Source of the DNA: Alphaproteobacteria bacterium
GTDB taxonomy: Bacteria; Pseudomonadota; Alphaproteobacteria; CAAHEQ01; UBA3637
Assembly (NCBI GenBank): GCA_045613285.1
Contig: JAZLAQ010000035.1
Coordinates: forward strand, 4,670-68,669
Direction: 5' to 3'
DNA length: 64,000 nucleotides
Made by a program: the position numbers and the translations under genes. Shown here piece by piece: positions 27,140-37,846 of this stretch (the stretch's first letter is position 1; each line of letters opens with the position of its first letter). Under the pieces are notes generated by a model. It was not told where the DNA came from. It worked only from the letters and a program-made list of their open reading frames with translations, and did no database searches.

Positions 27140-27540
27140 TGTAGTTTAATCTCCTGTTCTATTTGTTTTATTGTTTGTGCTAAAATTGTTTTTAAATAAG
27201 TTTTTCCCGGTTTGTTCCAGACTGTATCAGGCCAATATAAATCACCGTTAAACCGACAAATAATATGAACGTGTAATTGTGGGGTAATGTTTCCAATCAT
27301 AGCCACATTTGTTTGTGTCGGATGGTATAAGTTAATCATGGCTTTTTCACAGATTTCAATTTCCCGCATTAAAGTCAGTCTTTCTTCTGTGGTTAAATCG
27401 CACATATTTTTTATGTTGTTCTTTTTTGGTACCAAAAGTATCCATGGAAAATATGAATTATCTTCCAATAAAACGCGACAAAATGGTAAATCGCAAACAT
27501 ATTCTTTTTGAGATAAAGCATGTCCCAGTACAAAAGTCAT
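27103..27540 (-). CDS. HIT-family hydrolase
   Basis: Histidine triad motif LHVHIICRF; 145 aa; 4-nt overlap with ppa. Confidence 0.75.
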
Positions 27541-28088
27541 TTGATATATCCTTCAGTTAATTTTTCTCTATGTGTTTGATAATTTTGTAAAGCCAATGAA
27601 ATAATTTCTTTAGCTTTCTCCGGTCCTAAAAAAGATTTTATTTGGACTTGTTTTTGTTCCAGTATTTTATAATCTTCAAAGAAACGTTTTAATGTTTTTA
27701 ATGTATGCGGTGGCAATTCATCTATATGATAATAGCAATTATATTGAGGGTCATCCTCATGAATGGCGATAATTTTATCGTCCGCTTCCCCACCGTCAAT
27801 CATTTTCATAACACCGATGGGTCTGGCACGCATAATACAAAGTGGAGAAACACTTTCTTGTCCCAGGACTAAGATATCTAGTGGGTCATTATCGTCACAG
27901 TAGGTTTGTGGAATAAATCCGTAGTTTGCCGGATAGTGAACGGCACTGTACAAAATTCGATCAACTTTGACAAGACCGCTTTTTTTATCAAGCTCGTATT
28001 TAATTTGAGAACCTTTTGGAACTTCGATAATTGCCGGAATAATATCCGGATTTTCCTGATAAAGTTCAACTTGATGCCAAGGGTGCAT
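27537..28088 (-). CDS. ppa: Inorganic pyrophosphatase
   Basis: Family I PPase motifs ([10 protein letters not shown]…, [10 protein letters not shown]); start trimmed to [15 protein letters not shown]. Confidence 0.9.
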
Positions 28089-28107
28089 ATGATATCCTTT
28101 CTGCTTT

Positions 28108-30540
28108 TTATGGTGCCCGTTGCAAATATGCCTGAACCAATGCATCCGTATCATTCAGTTGCGCGGATAATTGTTCAGCTAATAACACGTTTTTGTTACC
28201 TGATGAATAGACCTTTAAGTAAGGACCTAAACCGGATAAGTCTACATCCAGAATAACTGATTCATGAATGGCGGGACGGCTGACTAAAATAGCATATTTA
28301 TGGTTTGCAAATTCTTTTCCCATCACAAAGTTCATTTCACGGGGTGAGAGGTTCCATGATGCATAGTCTGCCGGGTTGGCTTGTGGGTTCCGGAAGAAAA
28401 CGACAGTTTGACATTGACCGCGAATAACATCGCCCAGTCCATGATCGTCTAAAAATTTTGGTTGTTGGAAGGCACAAAGGAAAGCTTGTCTCTTTTTACG
28501 ACCTTCTCGCAGACCAACGATAAAACTGTCTTTAAACATTTCATGTTCCAACATCGGGGCAGTTTCGTCAATCATAATCATGGTTGGCGTTCCCTTTTGT
28601 GTGGCCAGTGTATGAATCCGGTGCATAACATAACTGATGACCGCTGGTGATAAAGTACCATCTTGGAATATTGTTGTGAAATCAAATCCCATATAACGGG
28701 AATCCAAATCCAAGTTGTCTTCCAACGAATTGAAAATCCGACCATATTGGTCATCATCTACCCAACGTAATAATTCACGACGCATATAACTGCCGTTTGA
28801 AAAGCAACTCTTATATAAATTTTTAAGTAAACGTTCTTCGGGTTTTAAATATTCAAAAGCAGTCGTAACGGCACGGGCAATTTCTTGTTCGGAAACAGAA
28901 TCTTTTCCACCGGTAATATCACGAAGCCATGTTCTTAAAAACGAACGATTTTCTGGTGTGTCTGGAATGGCAAACGGGTTCAAGGATACCGAATCGGCAC
29001 CACCATCAAATTTAACATAAGGGGCTCCTTGCATTAAAGCAAAGACTTTTGCACCGTTATTTCTGTCAAAGAAGTAAACGTTTAAATCAGGAATACGGAG
29101 AGCTTGTCCTGCCATAAACGAGAAGAAAGTTGTTTTACCTTGCCCTGTTGGACCAATGAGTGCCGTGTGGGCAACAGCATAAGCATCTTCAGATACGTGG
29201 AATTGAAAAGCATAAGGCGTTCCTGTTATTGTTCTGAAATACGATAACGGAACCGGACCCCAGTCAGATTTTTGTCGACCTTCGGCAATTTTATCCATAC
29301 AAACAGCACAGGCTACCACACGGGATAAATATAGGAATGTTCGCGGATAAATGTCATAAGTCGGTAGCTGGGCGAAGAAAGAAGATTGTGCTGACCAACC
29401 GTCACGTACCGGTGTGACGTTGTGAATGCGACATATTTTTTCAACTTCTTCTTGTCCGAACTTTAATTCTTCTTTAGAGTCTCCGAAAATGAAAACATTC
29501 ATGGAATATTCGTTTAGAGTCTGACCGTCGGCATCTGACTGATCTAACCATTCCAAAGCTGTTGTATATTGGTTATAAACGTTTTGTGAAAATGTTGTTA
29601 AAAAGGCCATTTTTCTTTGTTGAACCAATAACATATTCGCTTTTGTTGTAGGAATAGCTTTGATATTGTGCAAGATATTCAATTCACAGTCAATGGACAT
29701 AATATCTGCTATCATTTGCTCATCCATAAAGTCACCAGGTTTTCGGATAGCCATAATGATACCCAGTTTTTCTTTATCTCCGGAAAAGAAACGGATTATA
29801 CCGTCATCTTTTGTAAAGTGGATATAATCAGCTGTCAGTAAATCATTTAATGTTTGTCCGTTTTCTCCATGAATAATGGGCTTGGGACGTGAAACAGGAC
29901 TGAGTAAATGTGCAAATAACCAGAACGGACTTTTGTCGTGCGTTCTCTCCGGTGCTTTTTCAGAAATAACACGTGGTTGATACATATCCAAAATAGTTGT
30001 TGTTGCACTGGTAGCCTGATCTAAATCTTTTAATGCATTTTTTCGATCATTGACAGATAAAATAATATAATGTCTGTTTCTAAAAATACGATGTAAACTG
30101 TCTAGCCAACGGGTTGAAACGGCTTTTAACAAAGGCTCTTTTTTGAAGGCGTCTTTTTCTGATAATGGAACTTTTTCACGTACGGTAATCAAACGAGCTG
30201 TAATTTCCAATTCAGCTAACGAATCAATCCATTGTTTTCTGGCACTGGCAAAAGCAACCCGTTCTTCAGGTAAAACTAAAGTAGTATCTGCACCTTCTAC
30301 TTCCAAAACACGACATAAAGAATTTGTTCTTAGGTGGATGGTTGCTCCATCTTCATCCAAACGATTGAAAGGTAAAAAATCAGCAACGCGTGTTTCCTTT
30401 GGCTTAGGTAAAATCTTATCCCCTAATTTTGTGACAAATGTCGTGGCGATTAACATAGCCGAGATGATACAAATAATTAAAACCCAAGTCACACCAGAAC
30501 CAGCTGTCTGCCATAGCATACTGAAAAGATTCTCTTCCAT
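28108..30540 (-). CDS. virB4: Type IV secretion system ATPase VirB4
   Basis: 810 aa; Walker [11 protein letters not shown], Walker [12 protein letters not shown], VirB4/CagE family N-domain. Confidence 0.92.
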
Positions 30541-30558
30541 TATTTTACCCCCATCCTT

Positions 30559-30855
30559 TTAAGAAGCAAACTTGTCCCCGCGACTGCGGTATATATTTTT
30601 AGACGGCATTAAAAACGGACCGTAAGACTGCATCATTTTTGACATATGTGGTTCTTTTGTTCCATAAACAACCAAGATAATATGTACAACTAAAAATGTA
30701 AACATAAACATTAATGGATTGACTTTCCCCGGGAAAGCCCCTTGAAATACGCACATCAGAGCCATTTGGACACTGAAATTAACGACCATTGGCAACATTG
30801 GTGCCCAAAAGACTTTTGGTGGCATGGAAACTGCTTTTAAAATCGGTTCTCGCAT
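30559..30855 (-). CDS. virB3: Type IV secretion system protein VirB3
   Basis: 98-aa two-TM protein, MREPILKAVSMPPKVFWAPMLPMVVNFSVQMAL…; immediately upstream of virB4. Confidence 0.85.
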   Translation of the reverse strand: MREPILKAVSMPPKVFWAPMLPMVVNFSVQMALMCVFQGAFPGKVNPLMFMFTFLVVHIILVVYGTKEPHMSKMMQSYGPFLMPSKNIYRSRGDKFAS

Positions 30856-30931
30856 TTTTTACCCCTTGTTTTCTGTTATTTTACCGATTTTTTTTATAAA
30901 TGCAAGTATAAAGGATAAAAATATAAAAAAT

Positions 30932-32047
30932 TTACCGTTTTTTTAAACAAACCATTGATGAAATGTTATTTGAAAGAAATAAAAACGTTCTCGGCCATAT
31001 GGTTTTGTTCGGAAATTGTGTCAGAAAAAGAGCTTTATTCAGATTTTTTTCACAAAAACCCTGATAACCATAACGTTTCAAAATAGCCGTAATTTGTTTT
31101 CTTAAAAAATCCAAATCCGATAAAGTTGAAGCTTTGACACCGATAGATAACATGTAACTATTCAAAGAAGATCCGTTTTGAAGTGCAATCAATGCATTTT
31201 TATATTGATCATAAATATGTTGGGAAAATGTTGTAAAAAGTGCCATTTTTTGCTGTTGGATTAAAAGTAGATTTGCTACGTCCTTTTGTATGGTTTCAAT
31301 ATGATGTTGTATAAATACCCGTGGTCCTAAATTTAAAATTTCAGTCAACATATCAGGTTCTGAAAAATCACCCAAATTTTGAATTCCGACAAAACCAAGA
31401 TACGTATTATCAGGTAATTGAATGAGTTTTTCTTTCTTTTGGAAAATGGTTCTGCCGTTTAAAATATCCCATAAATGCTTTGTTTCAAAAGAATCTGTTT
31501 CTTGTGGCCAAGCCGAACTTAATGCAGATAGTGTATAACGAACGCAATAATCTAAATCATTTTTATGTTCCAAAGGCGTCGAAAGAACAAGAATGTCTTT
31601 TTTATCAGGTGATTGTTGTATTTGAATTCTGAAGGGGTAAACCTGTATTTGTTCCAACCATCTTTGAAAGTCTACTGTTGAATTCAGTCCGTGTTTAAAA
31701 GAAATGCAACGTACAACACGATTGTCCCTGGTTATTAATGCGCCATTTTCTTCCCGTATTTTTAGGGTATCGTTTTTCAAGGTGTCTTTGTTCCAATGTT
31801 CTATAACGCCGCCAAATGATTGCATAATTTTGGATAAATGCGGTTCTTTCCTGCTATATATCACCAAGAAAATATGTACGATTACAAAAGACCAGACAAA
31901 AAAATCTGGTATTATTCGGCCAGGGAAAGCCCCTTGAAGCATGACCATAATTGCCATTTGGACAGAAAAATTCGTCACCATCGGCAACATCGGTACCCCA
32001 AAAACACGTGGTGGTATTGCAACTGCTTTTAAAATCGGTTCTTTCAT
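30932..32047 (-). CDS. Truncated VirB3-VirB4(N-domain) fusion paralog lacking the ATPase domain
   Basis: Residues 1-80 are collinear with VirB3 (MKEPILKAVAIPPRVFGVPMLPMVTNFSVQMAI…) and the remainder aligns to the VirB4 N-terminal domain (…TFSQHIYDQY…FLFLSNN vs VirB4 [10 protein letters not shown]…FLYLSRV); ends before Walker A. Confidence 0.7.
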   Translation of the reverse strand: MKEPILKAVAIPPRVFGVPMLPMVTNFSVQMAIMVMLQGAFPGRIIPDFFVWSFVIVHIFLVIYSRKEPHLSKIMQSFGGVIEHWNKDTLKNDTLKIREENGALITRDNRVVRCISFKHGLNSTVDFQRWLEQIQVYPFRIQIQQSPDKKDILVLSTPLEHKNDLDYCVRYTLSALSSAWPQETDSFETKHLWDILNGRTIFQKKEKLIQLPDNTYLGFVGIQNLGDFSEPDMLTEILNLGPRVFIQHHIETIQKDVANLLLIQQQKMALFTTFSQHIYDQYKNALIALQNGSSLNSYMLSIGVKASTLSDLDFLRKQITAILKRYGYQGFCEKNLNKALFLTQFPNKTIWPRTFLFLSNNISSMVCLKKR

Positions 32048-32160
32048 TTTATACCTCTATAGCCTCATTCTAACGATTTTTTTTATAAATGCAAGTATAA
32101 TGATTTAAACTATAAATTTTCTTCAACAGTATTGAAATATTTTTTTTGTCATCTTTTTTG

Positions 32161-32220: not shown

Positions 32221-33447
32221 ATGGAATTTGAAAAAGCATGTAGTTTATGTAGCAAAGAATTTGAATTAACGAATACACCATTGTTTATTCAGTTTTTTAA
32301 TCGAAAGGTGTCTGCGTTATTCAGTATTCCCGGAAAAACGGCTGACGATGTAAGGATAAAGAAAATTCGATATACTCCGGTAGAACATGGACTGCTTAGC
32401 AGTGGCAGTGTTTCGAAAGAAAAAAGAAGCTTATTCTTTGTTCCGGATGATATGCAAAAAAAAATGTTGCAACATTTCTTAAAACGGGGCATATTGCAAA
32501 AACACTTTCCGGAAGATGTCGTTAAAGCTGCGGAAAATGGGAATAAACCAAGTTTATATCATTTTGCTTGGATTGTTCCACCGTATTTAGGTGGCAGAAT
32601 GGATAGCAGAAATATATTTTTGGTTCAAAATCACGCATTGGCTGGGTTAAAGCATCTGATTTGGTATCCGTTAGAAAAATCTATGAAAGAAACCATGGCG
32701 AGTGATAAGTTTAAATATATTAATTTTCAGTTTCATGAATTTCCGAAAGTATTCCATTTTAGCGATTTAGAACAATTTTGTGCTAGTAATTTGGATTACC
32801 AAAAACGCTTTATGCATAGATTAAATCTGATAGAAAAAAGTGCAAAAATCAAAATTCAAGATGAAGGTAAGTGCCTTGTTTTAAAGGCTACTGAACATCC
32901 ATTTTTATCTTCGCCTGTTTTAAGAATTCAGTTGCATGATCCAATACCTAATGCTCGGGATGATTTTTATGCGGATGTTCATTTAAAGAAGAAAGTTCGT
33001 CAAAGGGATGCTAGCTTATTGGCACATTTAGGAAAAGATGAACGGCTGGAAATGTCATGTAAAGGAACTGTACCATCAAGATTGCAGTTTGAATTTCATC
33101 ATATTGTCCCTTTGGAATTTGGTGGTAGAAATTGTCTGGAAAATATTTGTATGGTTACACATGATATTCATATCCGTTTTAATGAGACGGTAGAAAAACC
33201 TTTAAGGCAATTTTTGGAGCGTCATCCGGCTATGAAAAAAGCCTCTTATAACGGTAAAGAAATTTTTGTTGAAATACCTGTTCCGATGGTTTCATATCAA
33301 GATGCCGATGTGGATCTAAGTAAAGTTAAAAAAGTAAAAAAAACACACACAAAGTATGAACGGCGTAATTTACGTCGGAAAGAAAAAACAAGTTTATCTT
33401 TGGCACTAAAATATGGTGATTTGGATATTGTTTATACCAGACAATAA
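32221..33447 (+). CDS. HNH endonuclease-domain protein with unknown ~290-aa N-domain and polybasic C-tail
   Basis: HNH motif EFHHIVPLEFGGRNCLENICMVTHDIHIRFN; C-terminus KVKKVKKTHTKYERRNLRRKEK; 408 aa. Confidence 0.7.
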   Translation: MEFEKACSLCSKEFELTNTPLFIQFFNRKVSALFSIPGKTADDVRIKKIRYTPVEHGLLSSGSVSKEKRSLFFVPDDMQKKMLQHFLKRGILQKHFPEDVVKAAENGNKPSLYHFAWIVPPYLGGRMDSRNIFLVQNHALAGLKHLIWYPLEKSMKETMASDKFKYINFQFHEFPKVFHFSDLEQFCASNLDYQKRFMHRLNLIEKSAKIKIQDEGKCLVLKATEHPFLSSPVLRIQLHDPIPNARDDFYADVHLKKKVRQRDASLLAHLGKDERLEMSCKGTVPSRLQFEFHHIVPLEFGGRNCLENICMVTHDIHIRFNETVEKPLRQFLERHPAMKKASYNGKEIFVEIPVPMVSYQDADVDLSKVKKVKKTHTKYERRNLRRKEKTSLSLALKYGDLDIVYTRQ

Positions 33448-36796: not shown

Positions 36797-37846
36797 TTAT
36801 CGTCCTGTTTGACTGTTCTTTCTAAAGGTCGTCTGATGTTTTTGGTTTGTTAGGGCAACTTTTTTCTCGGTTGATTTGGATTTGATAGCCTCTAATGCCC
36901 TTTTTTGATGCAATTTTATATGGCAATATTCTCCCTGAACTATAGTTAACTCACAGGTTAAATCCGAATCCTGATTCAAAGCCTTTTCAAAATAAGGGTA
37001 AGGAACTCCCCATTTTTTACGGATAGAAACGGCTGGAATATTTGCATCATAATCCTGATATATTAACCGAGGAATTGCATTTAGATTATTTTTATTTGCT
37101 TGAACGATTTTCATTATGCGATACAATCTTTTTTTACGGCGCTCACGATTAAGGTTGACTGTTCGATCTTTTGCGTTGATGTAAACTTTTGATTCTTTTA
37201 TCGCTGTTTCAAAGTCCCTACTGAGCAAGGCGGCTTTAAATTTTTTATAGGCCATAAAACCTTTGTGTGTTTTTTCTTTTTCACTATAATAACCGACTCC
37301 GACATTATACATGACATCTAAAGCTAAGACTTGCATACATAAAGGCAGTTCAAAAAAAACAGACTTTTTTGTTTTAGGATTTTGAATTTGATTCTGTAGC
37401 TTTTCGATAAAGAATTTCATACCTTTATCGGCTAAAGCTTTTGCGTCTTGGGGTTGAATAGTGTAATTTTCCAACTCATCATCTGTCATTTTTGTCATTT
37501 GGGTATAAACATTTAAGGATTCTTTTTGGGATAATTTTTTTCCTTTGTGGTATAAAGGAATGTTTTGAAACCAATGTGGATTTGCTTCAAAATTCGTCCC
37601 ATAGCCCACGCTGACCTTTTTGCGGGCACATCTATAGAAAGAGAAACGTTCCCCCTCATTCAGTTTTAATAGAGGAAGATAACTATCCATTAATAATTGA
37701 GTTTCATCTTCAATTTCTAATTTCGGATTTAAGTTCGGTAAAGGTTTTTTACTATTTTTTGAAACCTGATATACGGTGGTACCTGTAGCTAATACTGCAC
37801 CTGTTGCAAATAAGCCCTTTAAAAATTGACGTCGTGACATTGGCAT
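36797..37846 (-). CDS. Tat-secreted hypothetical protein
   Basis: Twin-arginine signal MPMSRRQFLKGLFATGAVLATG; mature domain of unknown function, basic C-terminus. Confidence 0.5.
   Translation of the reverse strand: MPMSRRQFLKGLFATGAVLATGTTVYQVSKNSKKPLPNLNPKLEIEDETQLLMDSYLPLLKLNEGERFSFYRCARKKVSVGYGTNFEANPHWFQNIPLYHKGKKLSQKESLNVYTQMTKMTDDELENYTIQPQDAKALADKGMKFFIEKLQNQIQNPKTKKSVFFELPLCMQVLALDVMYNVGVGYYSEKEKTHKGFMAYKKFKAALLSRDFETAIKESKVYINAKDRTVNLNRERRKKRLYRIMKIVQANKNNLNAIPRLIYQDYDANIPAVSIRKKWGVPYPYFEKALNQDSDLTCELTIVQGEYCHIKLHQKRALEAIKSKSTEKKVALTNQKHQTTFRKNSQTGR

Follow-up and report, generated by a model that had tools for sequence, protein, structure and literature searches.

A VirB3-VirB4(NTD) fusion paralog lacking the ATPase domain, encoded beside virB3-virB4 in gut and rumen Alphaproteobacteria, as a probable non-enzymatic component of a type IV secretion machine

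The 64,000-nt stretch of DNA analyzed here (hereafter, the window) encodes, directly upstream of canonical virB3 and virB4 genes, a fusion protein in which a VirB3-like module is joined to the N-terminal domain (NTD) of VirB4 and which ends before the ATPase domain. This protein is probably a non-enzymatic subunit or modulator of a type IV secretion machine. VirB4 is the sole ATPase present in all type IV secretion systems (T4SSs), and our best explanation, to which we assign a probability of about one half, is that the fusion is a functional, membrane-anchored, ATPase-less VirB3/VirB4 paralog module, paired with canonical VirB4 within the inner-membrane complex of a chromosomal T4SS. Its resemblance to VirB3 and VirB4 is not due to chance. 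The coding features are as follows, with the evidence for each in parentheses.

30932..32047, minus strand: VirB3-VirB4(NTD) fusion paralog, whole gene without an ATPase domain (intact open reading frame [ORF], homology, orthologues, dN/dS, AlphaFold2 model)
31802..32047, minus strand: VirB3-like module, aa 1 to ~82 (BLASTP to the adjacent VirB3, hydropathy, AlphaFold2 helices)
30935..31801, minus strand: VirB4 N-terminal domain module, aa ~83 to 371 (BLASTP, family hidden Markov model [HMM], Foldseek, PDB profile match to TrwK)
30559..30855, minus strand: canonical virB3, 98 aa (BLASTP against the fusion, Pfam, orthologues in 80 loci)
28108..30540, minus strand: canonical virB4, 810 aa, with an N-terminal transmembrane (TM) helix and Walker A at aa 463 (orthologues in 80 loci)

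The original prediction had described an intact 371-aa ORF with a VirB3-like N terminus and a VirB4 N-domain, which stops before the ATPase and contains no Walker A motif, and this description was borne out by BLASTP, by the Pfam profile PF03135, and by the predicted fold. The ORF is intact and begins with an ATG codon preceded by an AGAGG ribosome-binding site. Residues 1 to 79 align without gaps to the adjacent 98-aa VirB3 with 51 of 79 positions identical (BLASTP; E = 6e-38), i.e., 65%, compared with the approximately 60% initially estimated for this part. The module is laid out as the KAVAIPPRVFGVP motif at the N terminus, a helical hairpin (residues 20 to 40 and 47 to 67), and then a KEPHLS helix. 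Hydropathy analysis called a TM segment at residues 45 to 63, with the helix at 20 to 40 under the threshold and the corresponding segment of canonical VirB3 above it. The Pfam VirB3 profile (PF05101) gave 19 bits for the fusion and 16.7 bits for the canonical VirB3 next door, both below the cutoff of 23.9; unlike VirB3 proteins of about 100 aa, the module does not stand alone.

The remainder of the protein is the counterpart of VirB4 aa ~59 to 418 and ends right past a PRTFLFLS motif at the boundary between the NTD and the C-terminal domain (CTD). Residues 192 to 370 are 33% identical to residues 231 to 417 of the adjacent 810-aa VirB4 (BLASTP; E = 3e-27), and PF03135 (CagE_TrbE_VirB) recognizes the fusion with 34.6 bits (cutoff, 21). 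An HMM of the fusion family aligns through its positions 90 to 385 to canonical VirB4 aa 59 to 421; as this alignment starts only at VirB4 aa ~59, VirB4's own N-terminal TM helix is replaced by the VirB3 module. The full-length profile NCBIfam TIGR00929 scored the fusion at 45 bits (cutoff, 643) and covered profile positions 219 to 397 of 792 only. No Walker A motif is present in the fusion ORF; VirB4 has GPTGQGKT at residue 463, and the last residue of the fusion corresponds to VirB4 residue ~418, about 45 residues short of that position. Thus, it lacks the length of ~800 aa and the C-terminal ATPase with Walker A and B that the VirB4/CagE/TrbE family requires. The virB3 start codon follows its stop codon after just 76 nt, and thus no ATPase remnant lies downstream.

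An AlphaFold2 run on the fusion with a 45-sequence alignment predicted one compact body (mean pLDDT, 92.7; pTM, 0.90), in which the VirB3 segment (pLDDT, 87 to 97) forms helices at residues 20 to 40, 47 to 67, and 71 to 81. In Foldseek searches of the PDB with this model, the best 14 matches were all R388 TrwK/VirB4 chains (E = 8e-14 to 3e-12; TMq, 0.60 to 0.64), the matching region being the TrwK NTD, and the next were unrelated flavoenzymes (E > 1e-5). A sequence-profile search of the PDB also reached TrwK (E = 0.003). The best-conserved motifs of the fusion family are the N-terminal PPRVFxxP, a GDF segment, and QQRKMAxFTTFSQxVYxQY. In the co-evolution table published for R388, VirB3 F11-G16 is paired with VirB4 D253-T255, Q305, and A312 (PMC9259494), and through the TrwK alignment these VirB4 interface positions fall on G226-D227-F228-S229 and on the helix T272-L286 of the fusion. 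Judged by this alignment, motifs mapping to the VirB3-VirB4 interface are preserved in the fusion.

Word-indexed protein searches recovered only four to five relatives, and the whole family became visible when 1.84 billion representative proteins were searched exhaustively with a profile, which yielded ~11 clusters with the full architecture (362 to 442 aa). In a 16-member alignment reaching down to 17% identity, every sequence starts with the VirB3 motif and ends within about 6 to 30 residues past a PRxFLxLS-type motif at the VirB4 NTD/CTD boundary. The fusion in the window has the composition that defines this family, namely, a length of 360 to 440 aa, a VirB3 module, a VirB4 NTD extending to PRxFLxLS, and no P-loop. 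Intact orthologues of 371 to 392 aa, 32 to 86% identical to it, occupy the same position in independent metagenome assemblies. The 86%-identical relative (371 aa) occurs on three contigs, and in the two that reach past its stop codon virB3 starts directly after. The relatives at 36 to 37% identity (391 to 392 aa) align over their full length and share the gene order thrS/divergent hypothetical gene/fusion/virB3 (98 aa)/virB4 (814 aa)/HIT/kdsB. All family members with informative labels come from gut or rumen Alphaproteobacteria metagenome-assembled genomes (MAGs). We found no description of the VirB3-VirB4(NTD) architecture in the literature on ATPase-less VirB4 proteins, VirB3-VirB4 fusions, or T4SSs of RF32/gut Alphaproteobacteria.

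A scan of one genome per species gave 80 loci, mostly from Alphaproteobacteria MAGs (rumen and human, rabbit, horse, and mouse gut) with a few other labels. All 80 have virB3-virB4, with VirB4 53 to 93% identical to that of the window, and two of these species representatives carry a fusion upstream of virB3, namely, L004 (389 aa) and L009 (414 aa; a different subfamily). With adjacency counted where the contig extends far enough, a fusion immediately precedes virB3-virB4 in four divergent subfamilies, represented by the window, L084, L001 to L003, L004, L009, and L087. The L087 member (442 aa) overlaps the virB3 start, which suggests a single operon. L005, L006, and L008 have no fusion upstream of virB3, though their VirB4 proteins are 86 to 89% identical to that of the window, and L005 and L008 keep the thrS/hypothetical/virB3 synteny despite this absence. 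When the 8 kb preceding virB3 in L005, L006, L008, and L018 were searched with tblastn, no convincing fusion remnant emerged; the matches in L025 are the canonical virB4 of that locus, which lay within the range searched. The absence of the gene from L005, L006, and L008, with no remnant in those 8 kb, implies that the fusion is dispensable for the machine. Members also occur away from virB3-virB4: a 367-aa orphan at L088 (1173-2276) in the order uppS-NUDIX-fusion-ptsP and a 362-aa orphan at L090 (8001-9089; also L091 and L092) in the order DUF4379-fusion-Na/Ala symporter-IMPDH, the latter type being present on nine contigs. The fusion family is small, rare, patchy, and fast-evolving.

We estimated selection by the Nei-Gojobori method, comparing the paralog with the canonical copies as the original prediction had proposed. 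For the fusion, dN/dS was 0.19 between the window and L084 (dS, 0.35) and 0.095 between L001 and L002; in the latter pair it was 0.007 for VirB3 and 0.012 for VirB4. These fusion values (0.10 to 0.19) indicate purifying selection, dN/dS is below 0.25 in every segment of the fusion, and the constraint is about 10 times looser than that on VirB3 and VirB4. Between L001 and L004, dN is 0.645 for the fusion and 0.051 for VirB4, such that the fusion has changed ~12 times faster. Fusions are only 32 to 36% identical between genomes in which thrS is 87 to 92% and VirB4 85 to 93% identical, and identity across the fusion family is 17 to 37%.

In a neighbor-joining tree of the VirB4-like part, the window subfamily (the window, L084, L001, L002, L004, and P0010-12) is monophyletic with 90% bootstrap support and lies outside a 100% clade that contains every canonical VirB4 of the group. 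This placement suggests an old duplication followed by losses, with the proviso that neighbor joining is open to long-branch attraction. The fusion and VirB4 trees are incongruent, the L004 fusion grouping with that of the window and the L004 VirB4 with that of L001. In a tree of the VirB3 domain, the fusion of the window is nested, with weak support, among canonical VirB3 proteins. Near-identity of the fusion to virB3 DNA is confined to ~60 nt, made up of the promoter block and ~25 nt at the start of the coding sequence, and the remaining VirB3-part DNA is roughly 70% identical by eye in the alignment; recent gene conversion over the whole VirB3 part is therefore ruled out as a full explanation. 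The near-identical 5' tract is compatible with either a short conversion tract or shared constraint. The original prediction held the paralog to be old and conserved rather than a fresh pseudogene, on account of its divergence. Related genomes do carry intact orthologues in the same gene position, and its age and conservation are upheld for the architecture by the syntenic orthologues at 32 to 37% identity, the dN/dS values, and the 90% bootstrap fusion clade; they do not extend to the sequence, which evolves very fast, or to the distribution, which is patchy, and the 65% identity of the VirB3 part may reflect, besides age, some local homogenization of the 5' end in this lineage.

The region upstream of the fusion resembles that upstream of virB3, and the following elements were read from the sequence.

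32067..32098, minus strand: candidate fusion promoter TTGCAT-N16-TAGAAT, inside the block TATACTTGCATTTATAAAAAAAATCGTTAGAAT
32054..32058, minus strand: Shine-Dalgarno-like AGAGG, 6 nt ahead of the ATG
30878..30909, minus strand: candidate virB3-virB4 promoter TTGCAT-N16-TAAAAT, in the 76-nt spacer 3' of the fusion stop

The block around the first of these is a near-copy of the virB3 upstream block, and the two can be written as a ~35-nt block, TATACTTGCATTTATAAAAAAAATCG(T/G)TA(G/A)AAT, reading TTGCAT-N16-TAnAAT. Related blocks stand ahead of virB3 in L001 to L006 and L008 and ahead of the fusions in L001, L002, L004, and L084. The shared block is absent from the list returned by a consensus promoter scan, which missed it because its -35 hexamer is weak; its designation as a candidate promoter comes from conservation rather than from the scan. 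In the promoter/terminator scan, no terminator came up in the spacer between the two genes. The presence of the promoter-like block near both genes implies that the duplication included the promoter region, which favors co-expression of the fusion with virB3-virB4; we thus infer that the genes would be expressed together.

The surroundings of these genes in the window offer several further observations. The virB3-virB4 pair (28108-30855, minus strand; likewise in L004 to L083) is set among the housekeeping genes thrS, ppa, HIT, kdsB, dnaA, rpoD, and uvrA, and no other vir genes were recognized among the window ORFs searched. The pair is kept in at least 80 gut/rumen Alphaproteobacteria species with a VirB4 dN/dS of 0.012, and this conservation together with the housekeeping context points to a vertically inherited T4SS with genes scattered on the chromosome, an arrangement reminiscent of the rvh organization. 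At its 3' end, virB4 shares 47 nt (28108-28154) with the longest ORF of the inorganic pyrophosphatase-like gene downstream (27537-28154); as the ppa orthologues of L005 and L006 are 182 aa long, translation of ppa probably begins at a more internal codon. Divergent from the fusion lies a gene (32221-33447, plus strand) for a 408-aa hypothetical protein whose C-terminal tail is rich in Lys and Arg. It contains two HNH-like motifs; the Pfam HNH_5 match (E = 1.8e-4) does not reach the threshold. The protein is hypervariable, with 22 to 45% identity among relatives whose flanking thrS is 87 to 92% identical, and is only 31% identical to its L084 counterpart, where the adjacent fusion is 86% identical. 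A role as a T4SS substrate or toxin is conceivable. In a 349-aa protein (36797-37846, minus strand), the one recognizable feature is a twin-arginine signal, which at 22.4 bits falls slightly short of the Pfam TAT_signal cutoff; only 35% identical to its L005 counterpart, it is another fast-evolving exported protein near the T4SS genes. Farther away, a 1,274-aa ORF (60135-63959, minus strand) combines in one frame an RND efflux permease (profile positions 235 to 1027), without the first ~235 permease residues, and then a NodT-type outer-membrane factor (aa 813 to 1260), and looks like an unusual permease-outer-membrane factor fusion.

The structure of the R388 machine provides a framework for what the fusion might do. 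That machine contains 12 VirB4 copies, six of them "outside" copies held solely by N-domain contacts (PMC9259494). The NTDs alone form the interface between central and outside VirB4 (1734 A2), VirB3 is wrapped around the central VirB4 NTD (2805 A2), and the hexamer contacts require both NTD and CTD (PMC9259494). With its domains and interface motifs kept, the fusion retains what is needed for membrane anchoring, VirB3 N-terminus binding, and VirB4 NTD pairing; with the CTD missing, it is without everything for ATP hydrolysis and ring formation. In our preferred reading, the VirB3 part would supply the N-terminal docking motif and the transmembrane hairpin, and the VirB4 NTD would supply the dimer-contact and VirB3-binding surface. 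The fusion would be co-expressed with virB3-virB4 from the duplicated promoter, its own VirB3 segment would dock in cis on its NTD, and the protein would then use its NTD to form a pair with full-length VirB4 within the inner-membrane complex. It might occupy or cap the positions of a second VirB4 and so alter stoichiometry or assembly while contributing no ATP hydrolysis. Expression of the fusion, its docking on canonical VirB4 through NTD contacts to form a heteromer, and an influence on secretion are inferred steps. The original suggestion of a scaffolding or regulatory variant is compatible with all of these findings. A more specific version, in which the fusion is a pseudo-ATPase subunit which heterodimerizes with full-length VirB4 through its NTD and replaces the "outside" VirB4 ring or caps VirB4 dimers in a vertically inherited chromosomal T4SS of gut Alphaproteobacteria, is tentative, and we hold it to be less likely than not. 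Against the preferred reading, in R388 VirB3 is bound by central VirB4 only, with outside VirB4 binding VirB8 tails (PMC9259494), and a protein with VirB3 fused to it might thus be unsuited to the outside position. Fast evolution is likewise unusual for a stoichiometric core subunit, and the patchy presence and the orphans far from virB3-virB4 speak against a subunit role.

These same features lend themselves to other explanations. The nearest rival is that the fusion acts as a brake or decoy, competing for NTD, VirB3, or VirB6 contacts, poisoning or delaying hexamer assembly, and so serving as a dominant-negative regulator of the T4SS. Such a role would suit a protein that keeps the docking elements and has lost the whole CTD needed for central hexamer contacts, that is dispensable and patchy, and that evolves fast in the manner of the Rickettsiales Rvh-II paralogs, which have been argued not to contribute to secretion themselves; a promoter-like block of its own would also permit separate dosage. 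That block, however, is a near copy of the one of virB3 and, like the translational coupling to virB3 in L087, argues for co-expression, and no independent regulator is evident. Sequence data alone do not separate this possibility from the subunit reading, and we consider it rather unlikely.

A function outside the T4SS, with the VirB4-NTD fold serving another partner and the adjacency to virB3-virB4 being a relic of tandem duplication, would account for the orphan members among housekeeping genes (L088; L090 to L092) and for the very high divergence from VirB4 (17 to 37% identity across the family). It is made improbable by the best-kept motifs, which map to VirB3-VirB4 contact elements, and by the adjacency retained in four divergent subfamilies. 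As for a decaying pseudogene left over from tandem duplication of virB3-virB4 and still open by chance, the patchy distribution and an evolution much faster than that of the canonical copies are what one would expect of it, but it is strongly disfavored and has very little probability left: the ORF is intact, at least 16 sequences, the most distant of them at 17% identity, preserve the length and a common domain end, purifying selection is seen in every domain segment, the model confidence is high (92.7), the gene still has its ribosome-binding site and its promoter-like block, no ATPase debris lies downstream, and the same protein comes from several independent assemblies.

Comparison with known systems sets the fusion apart from each of its analogues. 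Natural VirB3-VirB4 fusions, which the original prediction had invoked, are indeed on record ("a growing number of virB3/virB4 fusions" [PMC2653234]), with the ATPase domain kept. In full-length fusions such as Helicobacter pylori CagE, VirB3 likewise covalently replaces VirB4's own N-terminal segment; however, these have a complete C-terminal ATPase domain and are the only VirB4 of their system, whereas in our case the ATPase domain is absent and separate canonical virB3 and virB4 genes coexist with the fusion. The closest functional counterpart is Rickettsiales RvhB4-II (PMC4676284, PMC2653234), which is likewise an extra VirB4 paralog unable to hydrolyze ATP and likewise evolves faster than the canonical copy under constraint, with a role presumed to be assembly related. 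RvhB4-II differs in being full length with degraded active-site residues rather than having the ATPase domain deleted outright, in not being fused to VirB3, in lying at a separate locus rather than usually adjacent to virB3-virB4, and in being strictly conserved across the derived Rickettsiales families, in contrast to the patchy presence in gut/rumen Alphaproteobacteria MAGs seen here. The Rickettsiales parallel drawn initially thus stands as an analogy; membership of the host in that order is supported by no result, the relatives with informative labels being gut/rumen Alphaproteobacteria MAGs. The RvhB9-II protein of Rickettsiaceae follows the same logic, as a conserved, C-terminally truncated paralog with the N-terminal interaction domain only, but it belongs to a different component (the periplasmic/outer-membrane part) and is not a fusion. 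Finally, R388 TrwM/VirB3-TrwK/VirB4 (PDB codes 7O41 and 8RTB; PMC9259494) provides the best structural match to the NTD, and its interface elements are recognizable in the fusion; yet identity to the fusion is only 10 to 14%, and in R388 VirB3 and VirB4 are separate polypeptides and VirB4 has its ATPase domain.

The fusion offers a natural probe of whether the "outside" VirB4 subunits need ATPase activity and indicates which half of VirB4 suffices for a selectable function. If the pseudo-ATPase reading is true, the fusion would provide natural evidence that some of the VirB4 complement has a purely architectural role, and the fast evolution, which the fusion has in common with its HNH-like neighbor, might reflect strain-specific tuning of substrates or of the compatibility between machines. 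The protein also carries the "degenerate paralog" theme of the Rickettsiales rvh system over to a second, gut-associated alphaproteobacterial lineage.
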